Notes: generated by a model not told the origin, from the letters alone. 64,000 bases of DNA from a virus (IMGVR_UViG_3300031760_000024:1-64000), one strand, 5' to 3'; shown: positions 1,105 to 57,600, counted from the stretch's first letter. A program made the numbers and translations.

Positions 1105-1378
1105 AACTTGTCAATATTGTCAACAATCTTCTTATGAGATAAACGGTAAACAAGTTAATATAGCTTGTTGTACATTATCACATTGTGTCGTTAAAGCAGA
1201 TAAAGAGCATAATTGTACTTTACACAATAAAGACTTGTCTGGATACGATATTTGTTATAATTGTAAATATTATTCTGGAGGTAGTGATTGGGGATTATTC
1301 TGTAGTCACAAAGATATGTATCATCATCTTGGGAAGTTTAGTGATGATCCGTGTGATTATTATGAAAAAATAAAATAG
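1094..1378 (+). CDS. Cys-rich hypothetical protein
   Basis: ATG at 1094 after GGAGG/AAGGA; two CxxC...C repeats. Confidence 0.6.
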   Translation: MKCETCQYCQQSSYEINGKQVNIACCTLSHCVVKADKEHNCTLHNKDLSGYDICYNCKYYSGGSDWGLFCSHKDMYHHLGKFSDDPCDYYEKIK

Positions 1379-1401
1379 AACTTTGATGGGAGAAGATCAT
1401 T

Positions 1402-1656
1402 ATGACACAAATAATCGAAATTAAGGATAATGTCTTTTGGGAATATGATGTTAATAAAGCTATTTATGATTTCGAGGCAGAGTATGGTGTAGAACCACAT
1501 ATGATTATTGGCAGAAATTTCATTGAGTTAATTACAACTTCATATGATTGGATCAATGAAAAACCAATAGATAAGTCTGAAGGTATCGTTGCAAAATATA
1601 AAGGTGTGTCGTGTGAGTATGATCCTGATATATCTTGTGTAATTTTAAAAGCATAA
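1402..1656 (+). CDS. hypothetical protein flanked by two 18-bp palindromes
   Basis: RBS GGGAG; ORF lies between palindromes at 1370 and 1653. Confidence 0.6.
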   Translation: MTQIIEIKDNVFWEYDVNKAIYDFEAEYGVEPHMIIGRNFIELITTSYDWINEKPIDKSEGIVAKYKGVSCEYDPDISCVILKA

Positions 1657-1727
1657 AAGTACGATTTCATAGTATTTCAAAACGCCGAAACTAACGAGAA
1701 CAATACAATAAGAAAAGAGGATTAAAC

Positions 1728-2717
1728 ATGGTAAAAGAACATGACTTATTATCTGTAGATAAGGATATAAATCTTTATGTTCCAGAACTAACAAAATATC
1801 ACTCTGATGATAATTTATTAGATCATAATACAGATACTTATTTGGATAGACTATATACATACGATGAAGAATGTTGTTGGCAATATTCTATTCGTTTGAA
1901 CAACAAAACAGAAGATACGGAATATATTTATGATAACTTTAATATACTTCCGGAAGACATTAGTGTTGCCGATTTTGATGTTCTACCTATTACATCAAAA
2001 GAAAAGAAAAAAGAAGCCATAGAATTTATAAAGAAATATGAATGGCTTGGTACAATAACACAGTATTCAACGCATTACTTTGGAGCTTATTACAAAGGGA
2101 TCTTAGGTGGGGTAACAATATTTTCTATGCCAAACGCCTTTAGTAAACTTTTAGGGGATAATACGAAAGATTTGGAGAGACTTATTAGTAGAGGCGCATG
2201 CGCTTCATGGACGCCAAAGGGATTAGCTTCTTCGTTTCTTATGGCTTGTATAAAGTGGATGGTACAAAATACTCAATACAGATTATTTACAGCGTATTCC
2301 GATCCGACAGCGAAAGAACTTGGCACAATTTATCAGGCATGTAATTTTTATTATCTTGGACAAAAGTCTGGCACTACAACCAGATATATTAATCCATATA
2401 CAGGAAGAATAGTTTCCGATAGATTCTTTCGTCAAAAAACTGCATATAAAAAATATGCTGAAGAGTTAAAAATTGAATGGGATAAAAGCTGGTCTAATGC
2501 TCATGGTATGAATTGGGATAATGTGCCTGATGAGATAGAAAAGCAACTTCGTGATTTCGGGAAAAAGAAACAGAAGGAATCTAAAAAAATAGAATACCCC
2601 AGTAAGCACAAATACGCATATGTATTGGGCAATAATAAAAAAGAAACAAGGCAATTAAGAAAGATTTTTGAAGAAAGAAATACGATATTACCATATCCAA
2701 AACAAAGAGGCAGATGA
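1728..2717 (+). CDS. Mom-like (GNAT-fold) DNA adenine-modification protein
   Basis: AIEFIKKYEWLG..., ERLISRG, TAYSDPTAKELGTIYQACNFYYLG resemble the Mom-family YxDP...GTIYQAxNxxYxG motif. Confidence 0.7.
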   Translation: MVKEHDLLSVDKDINLYVPELTKYHSDDNLLDHNTDTYLDRLYTYDEECCWQYSIRLNNKTEDTEYIYDNFNILPEDISVADFDVLPITSKEKKKEAIEFIKKYEWLGTITQYSTHYFGAYYKGILGGVTIFSMPNAFSKLLGDNTKDLERLISRGACASWTPKGLASSFLMACIKWMVQNTQYRLFTAYSDPTAKELGTIYQACNFYYLGQKSGTTTRYINPYTGRIVSDRFFRQKTAYKKYAEELKIEWDKSWSNAHGMNWDNVPDEIEKQLRDFGKKKQKESKKIEYPSKHKYAYVLGNNKKETRQLRKIFEERNTILPYPKQRGR

Positions 2718-2757
2718 ACACGGACAATGTTAATAAAAGTAACCAAGGAGGTTAATT

Positions 2758-2979
2758 ATGTTTCTGAAAACAAAGACGATTGACACAAGATGTGAGAACT
2801 GCAAATATTGGCACAAATTAAAGTATGGTTTTAAGACCGGAGACGGCTTTAAAGAATCGTCATGCTGCATAGCTTTGACAAGGCTTGACGAAGATATAGA
2901 TAAGTATGATTCCTTTATAGTTGAAACCGATGCAGATGATATGTGTGAAATGTTTACAAGAAAGGAAAATGTGAAATGA
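2758..2979 (+). CDS. small Cys-rich hypothetical protein
   Basis: RBS AAGGAGG; CxxCxYW...C motif. Confidence 0.6.
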   Translation: MFLKTKTIDTRCENCKYWHKLKYGFKTGDGFKESSCCIALTRLDEDIDKYDSFIVETDADDMCEMFTRKENVK

Positions 2980-3119
2980 TTGATGTAGAGTTTTGGAAGA
3001 AAGTGATTCAGGCGGATCGGGAAAACATCAAGAAATATGGAACGAGTTCTTTTGGGTCGTATGATGGTAGCGATGACGACAATGATGAGGATTATAACGA
3101 TGAAGAATGGGAAGACTGA
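2976..3119 (+). CDS. 47-aa protein with acidic tail (not in ORF track)
   Basis: MIDVEFWKKVIQADRENIKKYGTSSFGSYDGSDDDNDEDYNDEEWED*; ATGA overlap with the upstream stop. Confidence 0.55.
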   Translation: MIDVEFWKKVIQADRENIKKYGTSSFGSYDGSDDDNDEDYNDEEWED

Positions 3120-3172
3120 CAAAATGGTATACAGGAACAAGTCAAATCAGGCTTTGAATTGGAGGTGATAAT

Positions 3173-3361
3173 ATGCCGATGCTTGGTTATGATAATGAAG
3201 ATTGGAAACAATTTATACATTATCTTGGAGAAGCAAGTAAACACATTAACAAAAAAGAGATTAAACGACTTAAGAGAGAAGAAGGAGAAAATTATGCTGA
3301 TGCTCAATGGTGTGATCCATTAGAAGTGTTATTGGATTTAACAAAATCATATTTGAACTAG
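3173..3361 (+). CDS. hypothetical protein
   Basis: RBS GGAGGTG; bounded by palindrome-like sites at 3141 and 3352. Confidence 0.6.
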   Translation: MPMLGYDNEDWKQFIHYLGEASKHINKKEIKRLKREEGENYADAQWCDPLEVLLDLTKSYLN

Positions 3362-3380
3362 TCTTTAATGGGAGGTTTAT

Positions 3381-3686
3381 ATGGAAATAATATCTGAATC
3401 AAATGCAATGTCTACTATTTCGATTATCATGTTCGTATTTGGAATATTATTTGCAGTGATTGGCATTCTTGTTGTTTGTCTTGAAAGAGATTGGAAGGTT
3501 GGATGTTTTTGCTGGATCATAGCTGCGATTATTATCCCATGTTGCATTATTAAAACACCAACCAGATACCGCTTGAGAGTTAACAAGACAACTACTTTTG
3601 GTGAGGTCGAGGCAAAGTATGAAATACTAAAATATGATAAAAAGAATGATATATATATTGTGGTTAAAAAGGAGGAATCCCAATGA
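3381..3686 (+). CDS. two-TM membrane protein (paralog family)
   Basis: RBS GGGAGG; two TM helices; C-terminal YRLRVNK...YEILKY...IYIVVKKE. Confidence 0.7.
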   Translation: MEIISESNAMSTISIIMFVFGILFAVIGILVVCLERDWKVGCFCWIIAAIIIPCCIIKTPTRYRLRVNKTTTFGEVEAKYEILKYDKKNDIYIVVKKEESQ

Positions 3687-4112
3687 AAATTTATACAGAT
3701 GTGAATATAGAACCAACCACTGATGAATTGGTTGATCTGTTTCTAGAAAAAGAAGCTGATGGTAGGGCGAGGTTCTTTTATGAATTGTTTGTGAATCATG
3801 GATGGGATGAGAGTTTACTTGTTGATAATATTTATGACTACATGGACGAAATTGATGTTATGATTAACAAGTTAGAAAGTATGGCAAATCTACTAAGAAT
3901 CAGATATGGGAGGTAAAATTATGAGCAAAATCATACCAATTAAATCTATAAGCTGCGGAAACACGGGGAGGTTTTACATCGTATGTACAGATGGTAGATT
4001 ATTTGAAATGAAATCAATTGCAGATATGACATTTGATTCAGAAATGAATTCGTGTTTTATAACAGATAACGCCGGAATCATCTATAGAATGGGGCGTAAA
4101 GTAGAAAAGTAA
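3683..4112 (+). CDS. two small hypothetical proteins (3683-3916, 3921-4112)
   Basis: Both have GGAGG RBS and are tightly packed. Confidence 0.55.
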
Positions 4113-4128
4113 GGGAGGATATTATTTA

Positions 4129-4329
4129 GTGGCATCACGAGGTAAAGGATCAATATCATTACGCGACGTACAAAAAACATTAAAAGCAAATGGGTATGAA
4201 TTAAATAGGCAAAATAGACACATGATATATAGAAACGAAAAGACAAAAGACGTATTTATATTGCCAAGAAGTTGTCATGACATGTTAATCAGGAGAATGT
4301 ATAAAGAACATAATATATGTCAAAATTAA
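4129..4329 (+). CDS. HicA-like (dsRBD-fold) small protein
   Basis: SLRDVQKTLKANGYELNRQNRHMIY...VFILP resembles HicA xxEVxKxLxxNGWxxxRxxGSHxxY...VP. Confidence 0.5.
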   Translation: MASRGKGSISLRDVQKTLKANGYELNRQNRHMIYRNEKTKDVFILPRSCHDMLIRRMYKEHNICQN

Positions 4330-4342
4330 ATGAGATTTTAAT

Positions 4343-4513
4343 ATGAAGTGTAGATATTTAGCGTGTGATATTTGTGGTCACAATATCGAAAACAGAAGAG
4401 AAATTGGATATAAAATTAAGAAAAAATTATTTTTTCTAGATAATACATGGAAGAATATGGATGTTTGTCAGGATTGTATGCATAAAATAATAGAAAAGAT
4501 TAAGGAGGCGTAA
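4343..4513 (+). CDS. 56-aa zinc-finger-like protein (not in ORF track)
   Basis: MKCRYLACDICGHNIE...DVCQDCMHKIIEKIKEA*; two CxxC pairs. Confidence 0.55.
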   Translation: MKCRYLACDICGHNIENRREIGYKIKKKLFFLDNTWKNMDVCQDCMHKIIEKIKEA

Positions 4514-6185: not shown

Positions 6186-7133
6186 ATGAAGGAAATGGAT
6201 AAATTTTATAATGAACAGCAGAAAAATAGATTTTTAGATACGATAGATAAAAGCAAGTTCCCACCGTATTATTGGGATAGGTTGTTCGCTTCATATAAAA
6301 AATCCGAAGAAGAGTGTGGCAAAGACTTATGTAATTTTACAAGACAGGAAATATTTAATGCCCATAAAGAACAAAATTATCGTTCGTTTGAAACATTAAT
6401 TATAGGACATATCAATCTAAAGAATTATACTGATTGGGCTATTCAGCAGTCTTTAGTGGATGATGGCGAAAATCATTACGATGAATTTATAACGGAAGAG
6501 TTGTTTGATTGCGTCAACACTTTGCAATTAAAACAGTCAATAATTACAAGAGACTTGTTAGAGCGCGGTATTAGCAAGTTAGATAATCCACAGGATTCAT
6601 TTCTATTAATAGGTATATTTGAGGGTGTTAAAGGAAAGGAATTCATTGATTTAACTACTATTAAAATGTCAGATATTGATCTAGACAATAAAACTGTGCG
6701 GCTGCCAAGTATCAACACTGTGATACCAGTATCTAATACATTCATTAACTGGGCAATTAAAGCAAACAGTCAAGACAAATATTATAGAAGAGACGGAAGA
6801 GAATATCCTTTGTATGGAGATAATATAATAAAGCTGTCTGGAAGGTATGCAGAACAAAACTATATGACTGGTAATAAGCAGAGCGCAAGTACATACCGTG
6901 CGATCTTACGATCTTTGGATGAAATGGGATACGGCAAAACAATATCATGTAATAGTTTATATACTAGTGGGATCATTGACTTAATCAATACAATAGCCAA
7001 AGAACATGGAGTTAATGCAGAGAAGGTTTTGTACGATCAAGAATTATATAATTTAGTTTTACTAAAATATAATTTACCTGCAAGTTCACGACGGCGATTC
7101 CTAATTAAATTTGGAGATTTCCTTATTAAATAA
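6186..7133 (+). CDS. integrase-fold master repressor, SPbeta YopR/MrpR (SroF)-like
   Basis: FYNEQQKNRFLD, KDLCNFT, YTDWAI, EELFDCV, IFEGVKG, NSLYTSG match my recollection of YopR; no RxxE or HxxR catalytic motifs. Confidence 0.75.
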   Translation: MKEMDKFYNEQQKNRFLDTIDKSKFPPYYWDRLFASYKKSEEECGKDLCNFTRQEIFNAHKEQNYRSFETLIIGHINLKNYTDWAIQQSLVDDGENHYDEFITEELFDCVNTLQLKQSIITRDLLERGISKLDNPQDSFLLIGIFEGVKGKEFIDLTTIKMSDIDLDNKTVRLPSINTVIPVSNTFINWAIKANSQDKYYRRDGREYPLYGDNIIKLSGRYAEQNYMTGNKQSASTYRAILRSLDEMGYGKTISCNSLYTSGIIDLINTIAKEHGVNAEKVLYDQELYNLVLLKYNLPASSRRRFLIKFGDFLIK

Positions 7134-7172: not shown

Positions 7173-7223
7173 TGATAAAGTTGAAAACTAACTATTGACA
7201 TTGTACCACGGTAGTGGTATTAT
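7173..7223 (+). promoter_or_regulatory. sigma-A promoter with conserved upstream box (shared with 24124)
   Basis: TTGACA(7195)-17-TATTAT(7218); TACCAC/GTGGTA inverted repeat in the spacer. Confidence 0.75.
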
Positions 7224-7248: not shown

Positions 7249-7336
7249 TGAGATGTAGCTCAATCGGTAAGAGCCACGGTCTTATAAACCGTAAGCCCTG
7301 ACAAGGTAAATGTGGGTTCGATTCCCACCATCTCGA
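7249..7336 (+). tRNA. tRNA-Ile(UAU) with long variable arm
   Basis: Acceptor TGAGATG/CATCTCG, D-arm GCTC/GAGC, anticodon ACGGT-CTTATAA-ACCGT, 19-nt V region, T-arm GTGGG-TTCGATT-CCCAC; no CCA. Confidence 0.85.
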
Positions 7337-7343
7337 CACATTT

Positions 7344-7427
7344 GCTACCGTGTCGGAATTGGAATACGAATCAGACTTAAAATCTGAGGCCCAGAAGGGA
7401 TTGAGGGTTCAAGTCCCTCCGGTAGCA
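7344..7427 (+). tRNA. tRNA-Leu(UAA)
   Basis: GCTACCG/CGGTAGC, TCAGA-CTTAAAA-TCTGA, long V arm. Confidence 0.9.
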
Positions 7428-7460
7428 CGAACAGAATCACGAAAGGAGGTATGGTATGAG

Positions 7461-8774: not shown

Positions 8775-8981
8775 TTGTTGTGTATCACACAAGAGAAATT
8801 GATCGAAATATTGCGAGACGTAATATACGAGATCGTGGATTTACTCAGATTAACAAAGATAAATCCAAAGATAATAAAACTGGTAGCTTTTTTGCCAACA
8901 ATTGGCGAAAGTATGTATATTAAAAGGAGGAAATTAAAGAATGGCATTTCAGAAACCAGTAATCAACAGAATTACGGCTGA
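8775..8981 (+). CDS. hypothetical protein (start uncertain)
   Basis: Fills the gap between thyX and the ATPase, overlapping the ATPase start. Confidence 0.3.
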   Translation: MLCITQEKLIEILRDVIYEIVDLLRLTKINPKIIKLVAFLPTIGESMYIKRRKLKNGISETSNQQNYG

Positions 8982-10074
8982 TATTAGTAATATCAGTATC
9001 TATCTCCGTTCAGTAAAGAAGTTTGGAAAGACTACACTGTTCAGAGATGTGGTGATGGAAAAGTATGGTGATCCAAGTAGAGGTCTTCTCGTTGGATGTG
9101 GTAGTGAAATTGGTTACGCAATGTTGGATAACCTCAACTACACACAGGTCGAGACTTATGCCGACCTTGTGGAACTCGGTAATTGGCTCATTACGCAGAA
9201 GGGCATTGAGCACAACATTGAAATGATTGCGTTTGACACAGTTGATGAACTTGTACTTATGGCGGATAAAGAAACCATCGCAAGATACAAGAAGGAGTCT
9301 GGCAAAGATTGTAAGTCAATAAAAGGAGCCTTTGGTGGGTTTGGTGCAGGAGCACAGTATTCTGCAAATAACATTATTAAACCTTTTATGTCTGCTCTTA
9401 AGAAGGCTGGTTTTGGTATTTGGGCTATTGCTCATACGAGTATGAAGACCATCAAAAACAAGGGCGATATTGAAGAAGATGGATATCAGATGCTCACTTC
9501 CAACCTTGAGAAGAATGCAGAAAGTGCATTTGGCGATATCTTTGACGTAACACTTACTGGTGTTATTGACCGTAATATGAATTCAAAGTATAAGGAAGGA
9601 TTTAACGGTAAGAAGATTAAAGAGAACTTTGTAACTGATGAAGTTCGTAAGCTGTATTTTAGAGGAACATCTGTAATTGATGCTGGTGGTAGATTTGCGT
9701 CTGGTTCAGTGCCTGAGTATCTTGTGTTTGACAAGGGGAATATGGCTGCGGAATTTATCAAGACTGTAGAAGATGGTATTGAAAAGTCAAGAACAGATTT
9801 TTCTACCGCTCCAGCTGAAAAGAAGGTTGAGCAGAAGGTTGAAATCAATGTTGATGATGCCGAAGATAAGCCGACAGAGAACACGATGTTTGACGATTCA
9901 GTTGGTGAACCAGTTGATGATCTGGCTTCATTGAAGCAGAAGATTATTGACAAATGCAAGGAACTCGGCGGGACTAAATCAGAGAAGGTTATGAATGCTG
10001 TTAAGAATTTTGGTAACCCGAATGCACTTAAAGCAGTTGAAGATGCACAGAAGTATTTAGAGGCACTTAATTAA
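8941..10074 (+). CDS. AAA_24/Sak4-like recombination ATPase (SPbeta YorG-like)
   Basis: Walker A KKFGKTT, IAFDTVD Walker B, IWAIAH; next to SSB. Confidence 0.75.
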   Translation: MAFQKPVINRITADISNISIYLRSVKKFGKTTLFRDVVMEKYGDPSRGLLVGCGSEIGYAMLDNLNYTQVETYADLVELGNWLITQKGIEHNIEMIAFDTVDELVLMADKETIARYKKESGKDCKSIKGAFGGFGAGAQYSANNIIKPFMSALKKAGFGIWAIAHTSMKTIKNKGDIEEDGYQMLTSNLEKNAESAFGDIFDVTLTGVIDRNMNSKYKEGFNGKKIKENFVTDEVRKLYFRGTSVIDAGGRFASGSVPEYLVFDKGNMAAEFIKTVEDGIEKSRTDFSTAPAEKKVEQKVEINVDDAEDKPTENTMFDDSVGEPVDDLASLKQKIIDKCKELGGTKSEKVMNAVKNFGNPNALKAVEDAQKYLEALN

Positions 10075-10104
10075 TAATTAATATATAAAGGAGATAATTA
10101 AACT

Positions 10105-10515
10105 ATGAATAATGTATGCATTGTTGGTAATCTGTGTCGTGATAATGAGCTGAGATATACACAGGGAGAGAACGCAACCGCGATTCTTCGTAATACTGTT
10201 GCTGTTCAGCGTAAGTTTAAAAACAAAACTACTAATGAGTATGAGTCTGACTTTATCAGTATTCAGGCATTTGGTGCGCAGGCTGAATTTATTAATAAGT
10301 ACTTTACAAAGGGTCAGAAGATCGGTATTACTGGTGAGATTCGCACTGGGTCTTACACAAATAAGGAAGGTGTAAAGGTCTATACCACAGATGTTGTTGT
10401 AAATAATGTTGAGTTTGTTTCCAAGAAGGGTGAAACGGAAGCAGTAAAAAATGATGGTGATGATTCGTATATGGCAATTCCTGACACCGACGAAAACTCA
10501 CTTCCTTTTAAGTAA
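10105..10515 (+). CDS. ssb: single-stranded DNA-binding protein
   Basis: MNNVCIVGNL, KGQKIGITGEIRTGSY, acidic tail ending LPF. Confidence 0.95.
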   Translation: MNNVCIVGNLCRDNELRYTQGENATAILRNTVAVQRKFKNKTTNEYESDFISIQAFGAQAEFINKYFTKGQKIGITGEIRTGSYTNKEGVKVYTTDVVVNNVEFVSKKGETEAVKNDGDDSYMAIPDTDENSLPFK

Positions 10516-23800: not shown

Positions 23801-24142
23801 GATCAACAGGAATTTTTGTCATATATTGACTATAAAGATACAAAAGCTAACCCTATGCTTGTATGTGTTACCAATTTGAATACAACGTATTCGCCTACTT
23901 TTACTGCTTACCGCCTGAAAGATGGAACAACATGTAATTTTAAGGTACATAAATCATATAACCCTAAAAATAAGAGTGTTACAAAGGCATTTAACATGTT
24001 GCCGTTTGAAAATGGTGATATACTATTTATAAAAAAATGGGAAAGAACTGTTAAGAAAAAGCCAGACGGTAATGGTGGTTGGGTGCCAGTTCCAAATTCA
24101 TATGACTGGTGGATAAATGATTATGATAAAGTAGGAAACTAA
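20867..24142 (+). CDS. dnaE: DNA polymerase III alpha subunit (DnaE-type)
   Basis: PHP domain YHKHS/SAEHG, GRGSAVG, LPDIDL, YSFNSSHA. Confidence 0.95.
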   Translation: MQNYHKHSYYSNLYSADAIPSYEDYAKRAVELGHKVLSSAEHGWQGYYHQVYELSKKYNLKCVVGTEAYWVKDRFENDKSNKHIILLAKSNMGREAINDILSEANISGYYYRPRIDLQLLLSLPPDDVFVTSACIAFSGYDNTDNIILALHEHFGNNFMLEIQAHATEQQVKWNSHLQELSAQHNIEMIAGVDSHFIYPQDSILRDDLLASKGVHYEDEEGWFMDYPDDSTFRNRLMQQGIWKEEQVTRLMNNTDVTLDFCDYDTVRVFTKDIKLPSLYPDKTQEEKNQIYKDLINEKLTEYLKGVPQERHQEYIDGVNAEVQTYIDTGMVDYPLLDYAIVNDAIDHGCLVTSTGRGSAVGYFTNTLCGFSKVDRFTSAIKLYPERFISTTRILETKSLPDIDLNTGTPDILEESQKRLLGEDHAAPMIAFGTLKKKAAFKLYAKSQHMDFTLANQISAQISAYDDAVKHADEDDKDDIDVYDFVDKQYQSYLDQSQQYWGVISDKKKAPSAYLLYDGDIRREIGLIKCKSESTKKEYITCCIDGAVAENYKFLKNDILKVDVVLLIAKVFERIGIQPFDVNTLIKTVTNDEKVWDLYAKGYTIGLNQVEKMGSTKKCMNYKPHNVSELSAFVAAIRPGFKSMYSRYENREDFSWGIPALDNLLRTNELPVSFLFFQEQVMSVLNYAGFPMDECYGIIKAIAKKHPEKVKPLKQKFIDGFYNKLLEEGLSEEDARSNAEKVWIIVNDNCGYSFNSSHAFCMALDSLYQAWQKANYPYEFYEVLMQHYSDKGKKDKVAALKQEMRIAFGINSGQYKFGKDNRGFVADKASKSINPALKAVKGFNDVIANELYDLSQNYQFANFIDLLEKITQETSCNSRQLDILIRLGYFSNYGEINELLYKTKYFQSLFDKTKGYKKQIKLSTAKKLELDTGIINQYSEFKPSKTNADDGNFANLCTKDMLMALKYNGEPRSVSAIIRDQQEFLSYIDYKDTKANPMLVCVTNLNTTYSPTFTAYRLKDGTTCNFKVHKSYNPKNKSVTKAFNMLPFENGDILFIKKWERTVKKKPDGNGGWVPVPNSYDWWINDYDKVGN

Positions 24143-24174
24143 CTATTGCATTTGTACGATGAGTGTGATATAAT
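24124..24174 (+). promoter_or_regulatory. sigma-A promoter with conserved upstream box overlapping the dnaE end
   Basis: TTGCAT(24146)-17-TATAAT(24169) with TG extension; 23/25 identity to 7173-7197. Confidence 0.75.
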
Positions 24175-25146: not shown

Positions 25147-25674
25147 ATGAAGGTAATCACTATTAGCGGATATGCAGAATCTGGAAAAGACACTGTTGCT
25201 AATCAAATTAAATGGCAGTTACAGGATATGAAGTTTGACACAAGAATTGTTATTATCCATTACGCAGATATCCTAAAGTTTATTTGCAAACAATATTTTG
25301 GATGGGACGGACAGAAAGACAATAAGGGGAGAGAGTTATTGCAACATGTCGGGACAGACATTGTTCGTGCCAAAGACGAAAACTATTGGATTAATTTTGT
25401 TGTTCAGATAATTGATATGTTCAAAGATGAATGGGATTACGTGCTTATACCTGATTGTCGTTTTCCGAACGAGGCGGATGTTATCAAATCTAAATTTGAT
25501 AGTATAGCAATTCGCGTCGTACGACCGGGATATAAAAATCATTTAACCGAAGAACAAAGACATCATGCATCGGAAATATCTATGGATGGTTACAAGTTTG
25601 ATTACATTATCAATAATCCGGGAACCGAAGGACTGGAGGAAAACGTTGCAGACTTCATTAGGAGACGCTTATGA
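25147..25674 (+). CDS. deoxynucleoside monophosphate kinase
   Basis: ISGYAESGKDT, RELLQHVGTD, IPDCRFPNE. Confidence 0.85.
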   Translation: MKVITISGYAESGKDTVANQIKWQLQDMKFDTRIVIIHYADILKFICKQYFGWDGQKDNKGRELLQHVGTDIVRAKDENYWINFVVQIIDMFKDEWDYVLIPDCRFPNEADVIKSKFDSIAIRVVRPGYKNHLTEEQRHHASEISMDGYKFDYIINNPGTEGLEENVADFIRRRL

Positions 25675-26860: not shown

Positions 26861-29800
26861 ATGAAAGTTGTCAAAAGAGATGGCCGGAAAGTCAACTTCA
26901 ATAAGGAGAATATTAAAAATGCAATTATAAAAGCCTTTGAAAGCGTTGACGGTGTTGTAACACCATATGCGGAAAACAAGGCTAAAGAGATTGCCACACA
27001 TATTGAATCCCTTAATAGAAGATTGACAGTCGAAGAAATACAAGACGAGATTGAAAATAAACTCATGGCTTCCAATAGGAAGGATGTAGCCAAGAGCTAC
27101 ATATTATATAGGGATGAACGAACTAGAGAACGAGAAAGAAAAAGCACACTTATTAAAAATGTAGGTGAGAAATTAAGAGCAGATAACGTACAGAATCAAA
27201 ATGCTAATGTTGATGAACATTCATTTGGCGGCAGAAAAGGCGAAGCAGATAGTGAATTAATGAAAACATATGCCCTTAACTATTGTATGTCAGAAATGTC
27301 AAGAAACAACCATCTGAATAATGAGATTTACATACACGATCTCGATTCGTATGCGGTAGGGATGCATAACTGTTTGACACTGCCGTTTGACAAATTATTA
27401 GCAACAGGATTCAACACTAGGCAGACTGATGTAAGACCAGCTAATTCTGTTAATACAGCATTTCAGTTGGTGGCTGTGTTATTTCAATTACAGTCATTAC
27501 AACAGTTTGGAGGTTGTTCCGCAAGTCATTTGGACTGGACAATGGTTCCGTATGTACGAAAGAGTTTTACAAAACACTTAGGAGACGGACTCGCATATGT
27601 AGAAAAGAAAAGCGAATATAAAGTTCAGCGATTTCATAAATGGCTAGAACATGATACAGAAAATCATCCTGATGGTACTATTCATTTTGATGATGAAGCG
27701 TTTAAAAATCTACATCCAGACGCATGGGAATATGCGATGGATTTAACAGAGCGTGAAACACAGCAAGCCGTTGAGGGTATGTACCATAACCTTAACACAC
27801 TGCAAAGCCGTTCGGGAAACCAGTTACCTTTTACGTCAATCAACTACGGTACATGTACACTACCGGAAGGGCGCATGGTAACTAAAGCGTTACTCGAAGG
27901 TTCGATAAAAGGGGTTGGGAAGTTCCATAAGACGCCTATTTTCCCATGTGGAATATTTCAGTGTATGAAAGGCGTTAATCGTCATCCTGGCGATCCGAAT
28001 TATGACTTATTTCAGTTAGCGCTTCGGTCTACATCGCAGAGACTTTATCCGAATTATGCTAATTGTGATTGGAGCGGCAACGAAGGATACGATAGGGATG
28101 ATCCGAAAACATATTTTAGCACCATGGGTAAGCGTAAACTTATAGCTCATGTAAAACCTTTTGAACCGTTACTCGCGGGTGTGGCTTAGGCTGCTAACGG
28201 TTAGGACTCTCTGAGTTGAGACCGTGGGAAGATATACATTAGTCGGTCATGAAAGGATGGTTCATGGTCGAAACAAAATATAAAAATATCTTCGTTAATG
28301 AAGAAGATTTGGAAATATATAAGAGAACAAAAACTGGTAGGATTATTAAATTAGGTAAATGGGTGGACTCACTTGGATATTATATGATTGCTTTTAAAAC
28401 TGATGAAAAGAAATATTGGAAAAGAGTTCACAGATTAATAGCAGAAACACTAATTCCTAATCCAAATAATTATAAGCAAGTAAACCATAAAGATGGTTGC
28501 AAATTAAATAATAGTTTAAATAATTTAGAATGGTGTGATAATCAATACAACACACAAGAAGCTTATAATAATGGCTTATATAAATCCAAAAAAGAATGCC
28601 CTATAAGGGCAATAAATAAAGAAACTGGTCAAATATTAGAATTTAAAAGTATAAGAAATTGTGGAGAACAGCTCCACCTAAATAGGAAAACAATTACTTC
28701 AATCCTTAAAGGAGAGAAGAAAACAAATAATTATGAATACAATTTTGAATATATTTGACCGAATAATGTATATAACCTGTATCGACTATCCCTGATGAAT
28801 GTAAGGGAGTAGGGTTGGATATGAGTACCAACTCGAAGCGGAAGGCTATCGAAAGATAGAAGATATAGTCAGTGCCTCTGGCGACAGAGGGTAAACATGT
28901 GTAGAACAGCTAACGGCTTTGATATTAACGGCTTCGGGCAGTTAAAAGATGGGCGTGGCAACATTTGCCCAGTAACAATTATTATGCCAACATTGGCGAT
29001 GGAGGCTATAAAACAACAGGAATATAATCCCGCAAATGAACAAGCAGATGAAATTGCTAAAAAATTATATGTTAAACGATTCATGTTATTGTTAAACAAA
29101 AAAATCCACGAAGCCAAGGATATGCTTATTGAACGATTTGAATGGATTTGTTCACAGAGTCCTGCTTCAGCAAAGTTTATGTATGAGAATGGTACTATGG
29201 AAGGATATGTACCAGAGGAAGGCATTCGCTCTGCTCTGAAACATGGGACATTAGCAATAGGGCAGATTGGTTTAGCGGAGACATTACAGATACTTATTGG
29301 TTGCGATCACACAACGGAAGAAGGTATGAAAGTTGCTAAACAAATCGAACAATTATTTAAGGACAAATGTTCTGAATTCAAGGAAGAATACAAACTTAAC
29401 TTCGGCGTATACTACACTCCTGCCGAGAATCTGTGTTATACGGCGATGAAGAAATTTCAACAGGCTTACGGTTTAATTCCGAAGATTTCTGACAAATCGT
29501 TCCTCACAAACTCGATCCATGTGCCCGTCTGGTATGAATGTGATCCATTCACAAAGATTGACATTGAATCGCAACTCACTGGATATTCGTCAGCAGGATG
29601 TATCGTCTATGTGGAGTTTGACGCTAGCGCAAAACAGAATCTTGAAGCATTAGAGACGGTTGTTAATTATGCAATGGACAAAGACATACCTTATTTTGCC
29701 GTAAATGTACCCTGTGATACCTGTTTGGATTGTGGGTATACAGATGATCTTAATGATGTTTGCCCAGAATGTGGTGGTCATCATATTCAAAGATTACGTA

Positions 29801-29904
29801 GAGTCACCGGCTATTTAACTGGCGATTACAAAACAGCATTTAATCTTGGTAAACAACAGGAAACAGAGATGCGATTTAAACATAGTAAGTTAATTAATAA
29901 TTAA
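26861..29904 (+). CDS. nrdD: anaerobic ribonucleoside-triphosphate reductase (exons 26861-28129 and 28900-29904)
   Basis: ATP cone, YIHDLD; splicing restores TMG|CRT; C-terminal CxxC...CxxC and RRVTGYL glycyl-radical loop. Confidence 0.93.
28130..28899 (+). mobile_element. group I intron in nrdD (770 nt)
   Basis: Exon ends in U (GGT), intron ends in G; CGACTA and AAGATATAGTC core elements present. Confidence 0.92.
28249..28758 (+). CDS. intron-encoded HNH homing endonuclease with NUMOD1-like tail
   Basis: VHRLIAETLIPNP...VNHKDGCKLNNSLNNLEW. Confidence 0.9.
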   Translation: MKGWFMVETKYKNIFVNEEDLEIYKRTKTGRIIKLGKWVDSLGYYMIAFKTDEKKYWKRVHRLIAETLIPNPNNYKQVNHKDGCKLNNSLNNLEWCDNQYNTQEAYNNGLYKSKKECPIRAINKETGQILEFKSIRNCGEQLHLNRKTITSILKGEKKTNNYEYNFEYI

Positions 29905-33273: not shown

Positions 33274-34434
33274 ATGAAGAAGCTTGCTAAATTACCAAGA
33301 GGAGAGGGTAGCTTTAATTACAGAGCAAACGGTTCTGTAGAATTCAAAAAATACGTCCATGTAGATAATGGCACAGTACGTCTTGTTGTGTATGGTAAAA
33401 CAGAACAGGAATGTATGGAGAAGATGCGTCAGAAGGAAGCGAAGGTTAAAGAGAAAAGTCATTTCGTTTCCACAGAGTTATTAGGAGAAGCTTTAATTGA
33501 GTGGGTAAACAAAGTTAAAAAGAATACACTTAAGAAACAATCTTATGACAGACTGATTGGAACAGCTAAACAGATCGGCAAAGCGGATATTGGTCATCAT
33601 TTTTACACTGATATTGGCATTGTAGAGCTTCAGGATTACATTCAAAGCCTTATTGACAAAAGATACTCATGGTCAACCATTAAGAAATCCTATGATATTT
33701 TAAGAGCGTTCTACCGTTATGCTTCAGCAAGAGATCAGTTTCGTGATCCGATGTTGTTGGTTGTTATGCCAAGACGAACCAATGTAAAGGTTGAAGCCAA
33801 GGAGATTCAATGGTTCGAGGAAGATGATATCAAGAAATTCACGGATGCATGTGAAGCAAGGTGGAATACAGGACGTCTCAAAAACAAATACTCATATGCA
33901 CTTGCGGCGAATATATATCTCGGTTTAAGAGGCGGAGAGTTGCTTGCTTTACAGTGGCAGGATATAGATTTTGATGCTGGAACTGTGTATATCTCTAAAA
34001 CACTTATTGAGTATAGAAAAGATGGCAAGACACACTTTGAGATTCAGGAATCTACGAAAAGAGACAAGAACAGATATGTACCAATGAATTCGAAAGCCAA
34101 AGATTTCTTGTTAAAACATAAAAAAGAATGCAAATTTACAGAACCTACAGACTATGTGGTATGTACAACTAACAGGAAAACGACAACACTCAAGAACATT
34201 TCTGATATGATCCGCAACATAGAAGAAGAGGCTGGTACAAAAGTAAGAGCATATAACTCACATATTCTCCGTCATACTTGTGCATCACTATATTTCAAGA
34301 AGGGTGTCCCCATCGAAACCATCTGCGCAATCCTAGGTAATACCAGAGAAGTATGCGAGAAAACCTATATTCATTTCGCAGAAGAACAACTCAAGAATGC
34401 TGCATCAAGGATTATTCCTGCAATAGAATTGTAA
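33274..34434 (+). CDS. int: tyrosine integrase
   Basis: GLRGGELLAL, HILRHT, LGN, TYIH; RBS AGGAGGTG. Confidence 0.93.
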   Translation: MKKLAKLPRGEGSFNYRANGSVEFKKYVHVDNGTVRLVVYGKTEQECMEKMRQKEAKVKEKSHFVSTELLGEALIEWVNKVKKNTLKKQSYDRLIGTAKQIGKADIGHHFYTDIGIVELQDYIQSLIDKRYSWSTIKKSYDILRAFYRYASARDQFRDPMLLVVMPRRTNVKVEAKEIQWFEEDDIKKFTDACEARWNTGRLKNKYSYALAANIYLGLRGGELLALQWQDIDFDAGTVYISKTLIEYRKDGKTHFEIQESTKRDKNRYVPMNSKAKDFLLKHKKECKFTEPTDYVVCTTNRKTTTLKNISDMIRNIEEEAGTKVRAYNSHILRHTCASLYFKKGVPIETICAILGNTREVCEKTYIHFAEEQLKNAASRIIPAIEL

Positions 34435-39601: not shown

Positions 39602-39640
39602 TTTTATCCAATAAAATAATGGTTTTATGGGGTTCATGAA

Positions 39641-39781: not shown

Positions 39782-39811
39782 TGTTCAGTCCTCCTTAATG
39801 GTTTTATGGGG

Positions 39812-43087: not shown

Positions 43088-44488
43088 TTACGAAAACAGC
43101 GCCTCTATGGAAGCCTGTGGAATTTCCGATAAATCTCCCGGTTGCAAAGCTGTGTCGGCTAATGCTCCCTGAGCACTTGTCGCATACGCAGTAGAAGCTG
43201 TATACGCCGCACTACCAAGACCGTGTACAGCAACGTCTGTACCATTAACGGCTACAGTACCGTTCGTAGCACCTTCAGCAACAGTTACATTAACTGCCTT
43301 GTTTACATCCGGTGTAAGAGCAGAGCCATTAACCTTAACAGTCTCAATGGTGTTAACCTGAGCGCCATCAGCAACATTAAGTGCCGTTCTGAGTTCAGAA
43401 GCCGTAATATTATCCTGAAGATCAACGCCAGCAATAGTAGTAGTCTTCTTTACGAATTCTGCCTCATCGCCAACTTCACTCCAAGTAGTACCATCATAAA
43501 TATATTCCTTGGCATTGTCAGACATGACCACAACATCGCCAGCTTCAGGATCAGTAATTACACGAGCAATAGCCTGTGCATCAGTTTCACCAGTCTGACG
43601 AGTAATAACACCGCGGAAGTGCATAGCGCCTTCAAGACCAGCGATTTCAGTAGCTACGAATGCAGATACCTGAGCAGCGGTTACAAGGCTATCGTCAGAA
43701 GACTGCTCTGTAATAGCAGAAGTAGCGACGTCAGCATATGCAGCTGTACCAAGAGAATCCTCAACCGCATCTACCTGCTCATCCACATACCCAATTACGT
43801 CAGTTGCGGAAGAACCCTGAGGAATGGAACCGATGAAGTCAGCGATGGTGTAAGTTCTGTCGAAGCCAGCTGTGGCACCGATAGCATCTTCTACGTCATC
43901 AATGGAAACGCCGCTAGTAGACACCTCATAATCGTCACTGGTATTAATTAACAACACACCAACACCAGTGCCGACATAACTATGTAAATATCCATGTAAG
44001 AACTGACCTTCTGCTGGCACTTCAGGCCCAGGACTAACTGTACCATCATCGTTAGTAACAGCGACATGACCACTGTGCCACTCTTCTCCACCTCTCGGCA
44101 TATAATCATCAGCCGCATCCGCAATAGCTTCGCCAATATAATCAACAACCGTCGTAGACTCAGCACCTTGTGGAATGGAACCTACAAATGCGTTGGTTGC
44201 GAGATCGGAGATAGCCGTACCGCTTTCGGATACCTCACCAGTAGCTGTAGAGGTTACGATCTTACCGCCTGTTGCGGAAGCAATTTTGGACATGAGCGAG
44301 GAGGTATCCGGCATATTCACGGTATAAGCAGCTGTTCCAGTCGCATCAGCCGTACGGTAGAACGATACGGTATTACCAGACACACTAATTGACTTGATAG
44401 AAGAGGCATTTTCCTCGCCAATGTACTGCTTAATTAATCCGTCATAAACCTGAAGCCCGGAAATATCAAGATATTGTTTTGTTGCCAT
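43088..44488 (-). CDS. acidic repeat-rich tail protein (paralog of 44604)
   Basis: Shares N-terminus and GGK...FVGSIP repeats with 44604. Confidence 0.7.
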   Translation of the reverse strand: MATKQYLDISGLQVYDGLIKQYIGEENASSIKSISVSGNTVSFYRTADATGTAAYTVNMPDTSSLMSKIASATGGKIVTSTATGEVSESGTAISDLATNAFVGSIPQGAESTTVVDYIGEAIADAADDYMPRGGEEWHSGHVAVTNDDGTVSPGPEVPAEGQFLHGYLHSYVGTGVGVLLINTSDDYEVSTSGVSIDDVEDAIGATAGFDRTYTIADFIGSIPQGSSATDVIGYVDEQVDAVEDSLGTAAYADVATSAITEQSSDDSLVTAAQVSAFVATEIAGLEGAMHFRGVITRQTGETDAQAIARVITDPEAGDVVVMSDNAKEYIYDGTTWSEVGDEAEFVKKTTTIAGVDLQDNITASELRTALNVADGAQVNTIETVKVNGSALTPDVNKAVNVTVAEGATNGTVAVNGTDVAVHGLGSAAYTASTAYATSAQGALADTALQPGDLSEIPQASIEALFS

Positions 44489-44603
44489 AGTTTATATTTC
44501 TCCTTTCGAAAGAATAAATATTTTCCACATTTTAATCCTATCAAAAATGTGTTTTATTATGTGAATAGTTACTATCTATAATCACGCACATGCGTAACTA
44601 TCA

Positions 44604-54628: not shown

Positions 54629-57600
54629 TTAATAGTTACCACGATTCAGCTTGCCTTTCCCAAGACTTTGACCGAGTGTGGTAGCCTGAATAAAGTTTGT
54701 AAACTTCGGGTCTTTCTGCAATGCAGTCTTAAACTCATCGTAATTCTTAACATTTGGCAATACGATTGTGATGTCATTATCGTTATTTACAGTACGTGCA
54801 GAAGCAGCAACAGCATTTGCACCAAGAATGGAAGGATTCTTTGCAATATCCCATAACTGTTTTGTCATATCATTTGTAAATACCATATCACCAGTATTTA
54901 AACGCGTAAGCATTGCTCCGTCAGACTTACGATAAATAAGTTCTGATCCATTTTCTTGAGTCCATGCAATTTGATTTGACTTAATTCCGCTAGAACCAGT
55001 GGCATATCCTTTGATTTTCTTTGATGCTCCAGCCTCAAGCCCACTCATGACCAGATATCCATCCTTATCAAATGTATATTCTACGCCATCAATTGTATAG
55101 GTTGCGTCCTTTGCATACCAAGTAGAATCGCCATACCACCAGCCCTTGGATGTCTTATGCCATTGCGCCATTTCACCAGACTTTGTGCCATTCTTGCCAA
55201 ACCAATAACCACCAGAATATTGGTTAGTTACCATATATCCTTCATCATCAAAATGGTAGAACTTGCCACCAATTTCAACTGTTTCGTTTTTGGCATAAGA
55301 GCCATCGTCATATTGATACCAATATCCTTTGCTATTCTTACGCCAATTACCGCTGATACGACCAGTTCCCTCAGAATCAACAACATTCTTTGCATTCTTA
55401 CCAAAGGCTAATTCATAAACTGCATCCTTAATATCCTTAATTGTAAGTATAGCGTCTGCCATCTTATCATTAAAGTCTTTATTAAAAGCACTTACCATTT
55501 CGCCCTCGCCGTCAAGAATATTCTGTGTCTCTTCGGAAATATCGTAACCATATTGTTCGGAAACTTCTTTGAGAGTATTGTTGATAAGCTCACTATTGGA
55601 ATTGATATAACCAATCATATCTTCCATAAGTTTATCAATGTCCTTCAGTCTTTCATTTAGAGTTTCCTCATACTTCTCATACATATCATCAAGCAGTTTT
55701 CCTGTTTCCTCAATGTATTTGTCCCATTCGGTTTCTTTCAAACCTTCTTCGGCTTCTTTAAGAGATTGCGCTAAACGCTGAATAGTTGCTCTTGCTTCTT
55801 CGGAATCATCGCCGCGATATGCTTCGAGTTGTTTCTGTAAATCAGCAATGTTCTTTGTCTGTTGAGAAATATTCTTTGAATATTCATAAGCAGACTTTGC
55901 ATTTGATAATGTTTCTTTATACTTATCAATAAGTTTCTGTAACATTTCAAGATGCTTTGTGATTGCCTGACTTACCAAATCCTTGATAGCCTCTTTTTCC
56001 TGCTCTGCAGCCTTGATAGAATCTTGCTGAAGTTTCAACAAAGACTCACGACGTTCAATAAGATTCTTATCTACAACGCCATTTTTCTCCATCTCATCAG
56101 CAATCTCTTTTTCAATATCAGCCATCTCTTTTGCATATTCTTTTGACTTCTGCATATAAACATCATATTCAGTAGCCATAAGACCTGCACTTGCCCAACC
56201 ACGACCATTGAATTTTCCGTTTTCCTCAATAAGATCATGCTGATCTAACATGTCAATTAAGAATTCAGCTTCATCAGTGATCAAGCCCAGACGATCAAGC
56301 CAATAATCAAATGCATCCCATTTGAGTTGACGAATCTCATTATTGAGTTTCTGGACAGAAGTAGCAGAAGCTTCGATTTCTTTACGCATAGCCATGATGG
56401 TTTGTGTCATCTCTGTATATGCCTCGGAACCAAGCTCAATTGCTCCAGTTTCCACCGCTTTGTCACGAGCCGCAACAAGTTTCTTATACTCTTCAATACG
56501 ATGTTGGTTAGCTTCCTTCTCAAGTTGAATCTGTTGCTGATAATACTTCTGATTCACAAAGTATCCATGTTCTTGACTGCGGCTAATACGCTCATCAACA
56601 ATATCTGACAAATCAGTAAAACCTTGAATAATCGCATCAAACTCTGATTTAATATGATCAAATCTGGTTTTGTTTAAATCACCAAGCTTAATCTTGTCGT
56701 CCTGAATAGCGTCTCCTGCGTCAACAGCTTTTTGATATAATTCTATATACTGATTAATGGTTTCAACAAGGTATTTGTTTTGTATCTGTTCAATATCATT
56801 TTTCCCAATCTTGCCTTCACGCACAAGCTTTTGATACTTACCAGAATTCCATTCCTCAATAGCCTTATCCCATTGCTGTTGATCATAATCATATTGTTTC
56901 TTGCTACCAGAATCTTCCTCATTCGGAGCGACATTAACATCTTCAACCTTCAGCTTATTTGCGTTTTCAAGATAACGCTTATAGGCATGCTCATGAACAC
57001 CCATTTCCTCTGTAACTTTATCAAGCTCTTTAACAAGCGCTTTGTTACGGTCACTCCAATCTTCATAGGTATTGTTCATGGTTTTGTCAAGACGAGCAAT
57101 AGCTTCATCAAGACGTTGGATTTTCTTTTCTATCCAGTCGAATGTTTCTTTAGTGTCTTCTTGAAGTTTACTTTTGCTACCATTACTGTTGCTTCCGTTA
57201 CTAGAAGAAGAGGAGGAGGAACCACTTGGCTTAGAATAATGAGCACCAGCAATTTTAGAACCAACTTGATAACTAATACTCGGCACATAAATTTGCCCAG
57301 CAGTTGTCATGGTTTTATATGCTTGTTCACCTGCTTGAGCACCATACTGTTGTTTTAACTCTTGTAATGCGTTGCCATTATATGTTTTAATATCTACTGG
57401 CACCATATCTATTTTTGGCACAACGCCAATACCAGCCAAGATATTATTCATACTTTCTTGGGTAATTAGACCCATCTTAATCATGTGATTAAGACCTTCA
57501 ATTACATTCTTATCATTAAATGTTGTACCAATTTCAAGGCTGTCAAGATCAACGCCATCAATTAAAGCATTAATTTCATCACGTATACCGTTTATTGCTG

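Follow-up and report, generated by a model that had tools for sequence, protein, structure and literature searches.

Recombination sites of the dif and pdif type (acted on by XerC/D) and lox sites are built of inverted arms of 11-13 bp, with ~9-13 conserved bp in each recognition arm, around a central region of 6-8 bp; their recombinases are known, and exchange requires matching centres. T4-type phages carry mobile regulatory cassettes known as promoter-early stem-loop elements (PeSL; Arbiol et al., 2010, PMC2839356; Comeau et al., 2014, PMC4122927). Cluster K mycobacteriophages carry the start-associated elements SAS and ESAS (Pope et al., 2011, PMC3203893; PMC12699233), for which the SAS consensus GGGATAGGAGCCC, inverted repeats of 17 bp, and a spacer of variable length have been given (PMC12699233). 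The stoperators of Cluster A mycobacteriophages (L5 gp71; cited in PMC3203893) are asymmetric 13-mers to which the immunity repressor binds. We describe here an 18-bp motif, ATNAAA-N6-TTTNAT, which recurs in a 64,000-nucleotide stretch of viral DNA (IMGVR_UViG_3300031760_000024:1-64000, hereafter the window). An earlier sequence-only reading of the window had proposed that the copies are cassette recombination sites of the dif/pdif type or, alternatively, operators of an integrase-fold repressor. We find that the motif is a real, strictly spaced element located at gene junctions in this phage and in its relatives, including SPbeta, and that, judging from comparisons between these genomes, it marks points at which the phages swapped genes.

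The window is the first part of a viral contig of 86,826 bp (~58% complete according to CheckV), referred to below as the contig. L-numbers denote loci that we fetched, and G001-G003 are whole viral records, of which G002 is complete (161 kb). SPbeta (NC_001884; L109-L111) and phi3T (KY030782; L112-L114) were also included. Loci were sampled by means of either a bait gene or the motif; the bait, an 84-aa open reading frame (ORF) of the window, provided twelve loci (L007-L018, 87.8 kb).

The motif occurs seven times in the window, compared with 0.54 copies expected from dinucleotide shuffles, and nine times in the contig, compared with 0.99 expected when codons are shuffled within genes and bases within spacers. 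Under the latter null the excess is concentrated at non-coding sequence, which is touched by five copies versus 0.088 expected; the enrichment at gene boundaries claimed by the sequence-only reading is thereby borne out by the very count, split into coding and non-coding parts, that it had proposed. The five strict copies that it listed (1370, 1653, 4325, 39611, and 44540) are correct in position and sequence, as are two degenerate copies (3141 and 3352), but two strict copies inside genes of the window (25483 and 56636) had been missed. Two further strict copies lie past the window, at 71079 and 78084 of the contig. The in-gene strict copies of the contig, three of the four being in codon frame 0 (Ile-Lys-x-x-Phe-Asp), are probably background favoured by codon usage.

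The distance between the arms is decisive. Identical arms separated by any other spacer from 0 to 15 nt are found only 0-4 times in the contig. Since the pattern had been chosen by eye, every arm of the same shape was counted as a control (all XXNXXX-type arms, N being allowed at each of the six positions, at spacers from 0 to 12 nt). ATNAAA-N6-TTTNAT ranked first among all of these patterns in the contig, and a count of at least nine for any of them was reached in just one of 450 Markov simulations (orders 1, 3, and 5). When the contig, G002, SPbeta, and phi3T were pooled, a spacer of 6 gave 44 non-coding and 20 in-gene sites, versus a mean of 2.4 and 7.6, respectively, for each of the other spacers (Fisher p = 2.6e-9). 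Variants with one mismatch showed no excess at spacer 6 (21 versus 15-34 at other spacers); a degenerate halo around the motif was therefore rejected and the family of sites was not widened in that way. A de novo search for k-mers in intergenic sequence recovered mainly Shine-Dalgarno words. The probability that the motif merely reflects chance or the base composition of AT-rich gene ends is, in our estimation, negligible. Its arms are indeed built from favoured codons (ATN AAA ... TTT NAT), most of the in-gene matches are in frame, and the pattern was picked after the sequence had been viewed. Even so, dinucleotide, Markov, family-wise, and codon-aware nulls were all exceeded, the spacer specificity holds in four genomes, and the motif was recovered independently in relatives, SPbeta, and phi3T; the spacer controls by themselves already refute such an origin.

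The twelve loci reached through the 84-aa ORF hold 15 copies at spacer 6 (13 distinct), versus 0-5 at other spacers. A scan of IMG/VR for ATAAAA-Nk-TTTGATGGGAG returned 20, 22, and 14 loci at k = 5, 6, and 7, respectively, and the k = 6 loci hold 28 further copies (including eight in 13.9 kb and seven in 7.7 kb), compared with ~4 in each control set. The three whole viral records contain 15, 24, and 10 copies, versus 2, 1, and 2 for a reversed control pattern, whilst SPbeta has 14 (1-6 at other spacers) and phi3T has 17 (0-6 at other spacers), nearly all of them intergenic. Only isolated matches were seen in cellular genomes. These isolated matches, together with the similar raw IMG/VR numbers at k = 5, 6, and 7, indicate that the signal is specific to a phage family rather than global, and we rejected the idea of a general host translation signal. 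The motif string was not found to be described anywhere in a full-text search of the literature.

Each copy tends to link one gene to the next. At 52 of 82 exact sites in the contig and its gut-metagenome relatives (43 distinct sites), a Shine-Dalgarno sequence directly follows the motif and a start codon lies 8-18 nt past the right arm. The right arm, mostly TTTGAT, is 0-2 nt from the Shine-Dalgarno sequence; the left arm overlaps the upstream stop codon in 22 of 31 cases, 15 of which are TAA at motif positions 2-4, and stop-to-start distances at the sites are 13-71 nt. The overall consensus is ATAAAA-N6-TTT(G/T)AT, with A at position 3 in 37 and G at position 16 in 30 of the 43 distinct sites. 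Beyond the 6-bp arms, the information content falls to ~0-0.4 bit; the right flank is the Shine-Dalgarno sequence, and the left flank carries no mirror image of it. The hexamer TTTNAT is found 8-18 nt before the start codon in 24 of 203 genes, versus 5-8 for four T-rich control hexamers. The GGG that the sequence-only reading saw after several copies is present, and is the Shine-Dalgarno sequence of the next gene. Its description of the motif as a palindrome holds for the inverted arms but not for their symmetry in this phage. In a set not selected through the motif, G at position 16 on the sense strand is far commoner than C at position 3 (16 versus 3, p = 0.004), from which we take the true consensus to be ATAAAA-N6-TTTGAT-GGGAG, a gene-oriented sequence. 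In SPbeta and phi3T, the arms do form a true palindrome (ATAAAA...TTTTAT) just past stop codons, the next Shine-Dalgarno sequence is 6-22 nt from the site, and some copies are located in divergent or terminator-proximal regions.

This anatomy is what would be expected of a purely RNA-level, start-associated signal resembling SAS/ESAS, serving translation initiation or re-initiation, or the processing of early polycistronic mRNA, and having no role in recombination apart from its conservation. The co-orientation with genes, the stop codon in the left arm, the closeness of the right arm to the Shine-Dalgarno sequence and of the start codon beyond it would all suit such a signal, as would the similar placement of SAS/ESAS (PMC3203893; PMC12699233). 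We nevertheless regard this explanation as quite unlikely. A hairpin between the arms is unstable when forced (+2.2 to +4.8 kcal/mol) and is present in only 3 of 43 minimum-energy folds, and positions 3 and 16 show no covariation, A.G being the commonest combination; an RNA or single-strand DNA hairpin was rejected on both grounds. Furthermore, the wider Shine-Dalgarno distance and the divergent or terminator-proximal copies of SPbeta and phi3T do not fit, the copies at 1653 and 39611 are orphans that lack a Shine-Dalgarno sequence, and homologues of the 84-aa gene in L010 and L012 lack the motif.

The copies also coincide with joints between unrelated sequences. The same 18-mer, including its spacer, joins unrelated genes in different phages. 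Near-identical 18-mers with the spacer GTACAA, which resemble the 1653 copy, link other gene pairs in L007, L012, L013, and L028, with three left and three right partners among them; the spacer TGAAAC has several partners on either side, in every combination; and the spacers CGAAAA and TATTCC behave likewise, TATTCC being shared by SPbeta (116414) and phi3T (107931). In an all-against-all blastn comparison of 19 loci, stretches of homology start preferentially between motif positions -4 and +1 and at 13-17, and end preferentially at positions 5-7 and 18, with almost none doing so within the spacer. Homology between the phages begins and breaks off at the edges of the arms. We also counted broken gene boundaries in those pairwise comparisons in which one side or both showed homology, having excluded the junctions of the bait gene itself. 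Linker boundaries were broken in 39 of 45 cases, versus 122 of 233 for other boundaries (odds ratio 5.9, p = 1e-5) and, when counted per boundary, 17 of 17 linker boundaries versus 91 of 135 others were broken (p = 0.003). Shared 18-mers, homology edges, and break counts agree that variable genes of the relatives begin and end at the sites. Given this and the enrichment at gene boundaries, neither of the two outcomes by which the sequence-only reading was to fall (no such enrichment, or variable genes that do not end at the sites) was found.

We tentatively favour an explanation that we hold to be nearly an even bet: that the motif is a conserved linker between cistrons, which some putative factor reads as a unit, and at the same time a PeSL-like, short-homology crossover point. 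The linker would run from an upstream stop codon in or next to ATAAAA, through exactly six variable bases and TTT(G/T)AT, to a Shine-Dalgarno sequence and the next start codon. Its arms would be kept constant because the putative factor reads them, either during expression of the polycistronic early message or on DNA. With the same short sequence at many junctions, the linker could then become a favoured crossover point between co-infecting relatives, or between copies within one genome, and single genes would be moved, deleted, or swapped as a result. Probable machinery for such crossovers is a Sak4-type annealing protein, an SSB, and a RecJ-like nuclease carried by these phages; we infer a link between the motif and the Sak4/SSB pair of the window. 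The same pair is likewise found downstream in L007, L013, and L014, and the Sak4-like protein corresponds to yorG in SPbeta.

Several points weigh against this explanation. The break statistics rest on crude gene calls, on non-independent pairs, and on loci picked by bait gene or by motif, and most linker boundaries belong to gene-shuffling regions, in which breaks are frequent in any case. Homologous recombination would have very little to act on in arms of 6 bp, even if the right side is extended to ~12 bp by the Shine-Dalgarno sequence. The full arrangement of right arm plus Shine-Dalgarno sequence is present at just 2 of 112 gene starts in the contig, and the distances of 6-22 nt in SPbeta and phi3T imply that the link to the ribosome-binding site is not universal. 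Lastly, a mere expression signal or AU-rich signal needs no exact 6-bp spacer, which suggests a specific binding factor.

A protein that binds the linker as DNA could be such a factor. The motif might be a site for a dimeric phage or host protein other than the repressor MrpR, acting as a stoperator-type roadblock or silencer, or as a nucleoid-type organizer, in which case the joints would be a by-product. The exact spacing and the palindromic arms in SPbeta and phi3T would suit a dimer on DNA; each genome has tens of copies, nearly all intergenic; the stoperators provide a precedent of many oriented, intergenic repressor sites (PMC3203893); and some copies in G002 lie within larger regulatory regions with long inverted repeats. 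On the other hand, sites in the window do not coincide with sigma-A-type promoters, the gut phages show a gene-oriented asymmetry and a direct fusion to the Shine-Dalgarno sequence, and a one-mismatch excess is lacking. We consider this account unlikely, yet deserving of some weight.

The three G002 copies in question (35070, 107463, and 116687; L101 and L105) are preceded by a TTCACA/GTGACA hexamer and are followed, ~10 nt downstream, by a long inverted repeat, AACCACAATATATAG ... CTATATATTGTGGTT. To judge by this layout, the hexamer, motif, and inverted repeat appear to form a larger regulatory element.

The version in which MrpR itself is the reader was rejected. SPBRE, the 15-bp operator of the SPbeta master repressor MrpR/YopR, overlaps promoters (Kohm et al., 2023, PMC10516654) and, as read from ten published target promoters, is ACAAAWACAAAWAATATGTATA-like. 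Like SPBRE, the motif is a repeated intergenic element of SPbeta-like phages, and a homologue of MrpR is encoded in the window (6186-7133); unlike SPBRE, it has a different sequence and placement. No sigma-70 (sigma-A-type) promoters or intrinsic terminators were found at motif sites, and no match to MrpR_N_CB was found in the three motif-rich records G001-G003. The alternative offered by the sequence-only reading, an operator of the integrase-fold repressor, is thus not borne out.

A more suitable candidate for that operator is a 23-bp repeat, GATAAAGTnGnAAACTAACTATTG, located at 7174-7196 and 24125-24147 and fused to the -35 box of two promoters. The first promoter (7195-7223) is TTGACA-17-TATTAT with a TG, and the second is within the last codons of the gene for the DnaE-type polymerase. 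From its sequence and position, the repeat is likely the counterpart of SPBRE and the operator of the MrpR homologue. Directly 3' of the strong promoter at 7195-7223 are tRNA genes for Ile(TAT) and Leu(TAA) (7249-7428).

Other known consensus sites were also considered. Those of IHF, ComK, CodY, and similar proteins do not seem to fit the motif in order or spacing. A late promoter of the YonO polymerase is unlikely, because YonO is reported to transcribe the late genes of SPbeta in one operon, the only start of which is upstream of yonK (PMC5467207).

The positions of the joints, at the edges of arms and spacer, bear on whether cassettes are exchanged enzymatically, with the 6-6-6 site serving a phage tyrosine recombinase as its core site. 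The enzyme would be encoded by one of the extra integrase-fold genes (yomM- or yopP-like) that SPbeta-like phages share, which in the contig would be the gene for a 340-aa protein described below. Inverted arms around a strict 6-bp spacer, which form a true palindrome in SPbeta and phi3T, have the appropriate layout, and identical spacers are found in phages with unrelated flanks. Moreover, two to three Phage_integrase-domain genes are present in every motif-rich genome examined, including G001-G003. One of these genes, in the structural-gene block of the contig (69630-70652, - strand; L099:1459-2481), encodes a second, XerD-like tyrosine recombinase of 340 aa with Phage_integrase and SAM-like N-terminal domains. 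It is placed like yomM of SPbeta and phi3T_29, and retains the H-x-x-R and C-terminal Tyr motifs. We are nonetheless decidedly doubtful of this mechanism. Conservation and symmetry end after 6 bp in each arm, and the site of the gut phages is asymmetric, gene-oriented, and fused to a Shine-Dalgarno sequence. All nine spacers of the contig differ from one another, as do all 24 of G002, and with spacers that are all different within a genome, exchange of the Cre/Xer/lambda type between copies would be blocked. The joints are on both sides of the spacer and in both arms, a folded, attC-like substrate would be unfavourable given the hairpin energies above, and the integrase at 33274-34434 acts at attP in the ordinary way. 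Of the cassette recombination sites first proposed, the location at gene boundaries and the turnover of genes stand, whereas the core mechanism of a tyrosine recombinase is not supported; since recombinases are present in these genomes, enzymatic exchange keeps a small probability.

A variant in which the differing spacers are put to use is an addressable exchange: a YomM- or YopP-like recombinase would read the arms, the 6-bp spacer would serve as an address, and only linkers of co-infecting phages that have the same spacer would recombine. This is a long shot; if true, flanking genes would be swapped precisely while the genome stays unscrambled, and phages would thus have their own equivalent of heterospecific lox sites or of integrons. 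A site for a serine recombinase or invertase, of which the hix half-site resembles ATCAAA, was rejected, as the contig has no gene of the resolvase family and the spacing does not fit.

The individual copies and the features next to them are listed in Table 1. It had been claimed that four of the five early copies overlap a stop codon, which is true of those at 1370, 1653, 3352, and 4325 and not of that at 3141, and that two pairs bracket single ORFs, which is likewise true (1402-1656 and 3173-3361). The degenerate copies of the second pair share the linker plan of the strict copies, and the right arm of the 3352 copy adjoins the Shine-Dalgarno sequence GGGAGG of the gene at 3381-3686. At the 4325 copy, the right arm is directly abutted by the ATG of the gene at 4343-4513. 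The 1653 copy lacks a Shine-Dalgarno sequence, and the Mom-like gene begins 58 nt downstream with a leader of its own.

Table 1. Copies of the linker motif and associated features in the window
Feature	Position	Strand	Remarks
Strict copy, ATAAAA-TAGAAC-TTTGAT	1370-1387	+	TAG stop of gene 1094-1378 in spacer
Shine-Dalgarno sequence GGGAGAAG	1388-1395	+	Adjoins right arm of 1370 copy; ATG of 84-aa gene at 1402
84-aa ORF, no assigned function	1402-1656	+	Flanked by copies at 1370 and 1653
Strict copy, ATAAAA-GTACGA-TTTCAT	1653-1670	+	TAA stop of 84-aa gene (1654-1656) inside left arm
Half linker, left arm ATAAAA and 6-nt spacer	2733-2751	+	Leads to Shine-Dalgarno sequence AAGGAGG of gene 2758-2979; no right arm
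Degenerate copy, GTCAAA-TCAGGC-TTTGAA	3141-3158	+	Followed after 2 nt by Shine-Dalgarno sequence GGAGG of gene 3173-3361
Degenerate copy, TTTGAA-CTAGTC-TTTAAT	3352-3369	+	TAG stop of gene 3173-3361 in spacer
Strict copy, ATTAAA-TGAGAT-TTTAAT	4325-4342	+	Left arm holds TAA stop of HicA-like gene 4129-4329
Sak4-like single-strand annealing protein (AAA_24; 8941-10074) and SSB (10105-10515)	8941-10515	+	Candidate short-homology machinery
Strict in-gene match (I K S K F D)	25483-25500	+	Codon frame 0; probably background
Strict copy, ATAAAA-CCATTA-TTTTAT (gene strand)	39611-39628	-	13 nt past stop of 46-aa ORF; no Shine-Dalgarno sequence after it
16-bp direct repeat CCCCATAAAACCATTA	39617-39632 and 39796-39811	-	Flanks 46-aa ORF (39781-39641)
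Strict copy, ATAAAA-CACATT-TTTGAT (gene strand)	44540-44557	-	Followed by AGGA and ATG of 12-codon mini-ORF
Strict in-gene match (I K S E F D)	56636-56653	-	Inside 2140-aa ORF, frame 0; probably background

The 84-aa ORF has homologues in 49 clusters with 48-96% identity, and their neighbours differ across L007-L018; on this comparative evidence, it is a mobile accessory gene with many different neighbours. The layout of the 1370 copy recurs 5' of homologues of this ORF in L007, L013, and L015. At the 46-aa ORF, the direct repeat contains the left arm and spacer of the linker, with AGGAGG following the upstream copy and TTTTAT the downstream one, and this arrangement looks like the footprint expected of gain or loss of a gene through a linker crossover. 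The mini-ORF that follows the 44540 copy (MWKIFILSKGEI; 44488-44529, - strand) lies between that copy and the true Shine-Dalgarno sequence and start of the gene at 43088-44488; it could encode a leader peptide or be what is left of a gene start that was lost.

Genes of the contig are on the + strand up to 34.4 kb and on the - strand from 34.5 kb (endolysin and structural genes). The + strand block begins with small early ORFs, the Mom-like gene, a DndB/YopQ-like gene, and the MrpR/YopR homologue, continues with the Sak4-like annealing protein, SSB, DnaB, primase, and the DnaE-type polymerase, and ends with a split nrdD and the tyrosine integrase. Gene content and order match those of SPbeta-like phages, and no close relative was found among named phages for the window, L022, or L031 by megablast. 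The early accessory genes encode a Mom-family protein (1728-2717, E = 1e-16) and a DUF3850/ASCH protein (106-471); the HicA-like match of the gene at 4129-4329 is weak (24.1 bits, compared with a Pfam cut-off of 27). The Mom-like gene is also found in quite unrelated phages (L002-L006), these relatives and L001 being either too remote or in contexts too unrelated for breakpoints to be mapped. The anaerobic ribonucleotide reductase gene nrdD is divided between ORFs 26861-28189 and 28897-29904 (region 26861-29904), with an ORF for an HNH/I-HmuI-like homing endonuclease (28264-28758) between the halves; the interruption is probably an intron.

If the linker is read as a crossover point, it would support, at the level of sequence and for a new phage group, the old idea that modules are exchanged at short shared linkers and not through random illegitimate joins alone. 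Both SPbeta and phi3T, phages amenable to manipulation in Bacillus subtilis, carry the motif, and the reader of the motif, passive versus enzymatic exchange, and the role of the spacer are therefore open to experiment. It could also serve as a marker for gene junctions and accessory-gene regions in unannotated contigs of Firmicute phages, and as a natural seam for modular phage engineering.

Compared with the described systems, the motif resembles stoperators in having many copies in short intergenic spaces, often at stop or start codons and oriented with transcription; unlike them, its arms are inverted repeats and it has no link to a repressor. With dif, pdif, and lox sites it shares inverted arms around a 6-bp centre (within their range of 6-8 bp) and modules flanked by sites, but it has only six conserved bp per arm, spacers that differ within a genome, and a tie to translation signals and gene orientation. 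The sites of pdif modules have opposite orientations (XerC-XerD and XerD-XerC), whereas the copies described here are co-oriented with genes. In integrons, attC is a substrate in the form of a folded single-strand hairpin, with an IntI integrase beside an attI-Pc platform; the copies described here form no favourable folded hairpin and have no integrase beside the early cassette region of the window. The likeness to SAS/ESAS is in the placement of a one-orientation motif that closely precedes the start codon in some of the genes and overlaps the Shine-Dalgarno region, a placement that is found at the 52 of 82 sites mentioned above and is looser in SPbeta and phi3T; as in ESAS, inverted repeats surround a spacer without support for a hairpin. 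SAS/ESAS differ in having a GC-rich 13-mer, 17-bp repeats, and a spacer of 4-13 bp, in place of AT-rich 6-bp arms and a spacer of exactly 6, and a gene-shuffling role is not reported for them. PeSL are longer, with a sigma-70 promoter and a GC-rich stem-loop terminator, for which the stop-to-start distances seen here mostly leave no room; the motif has neither a promoter nor a stable stem, consists of two 6-bp arms 6 bp apart, and belongs to SPbeta-like siphoviruses of Firmicutes. As in PeSL, a short repeated intergenic motif spans the distance from an upstream stop codon to the next Shine-Dalgarno sequence and start codon beside small accessory ORFs, is an exchange point of unrelated sequence between related phages, and flanks single ORFs as direct copies.

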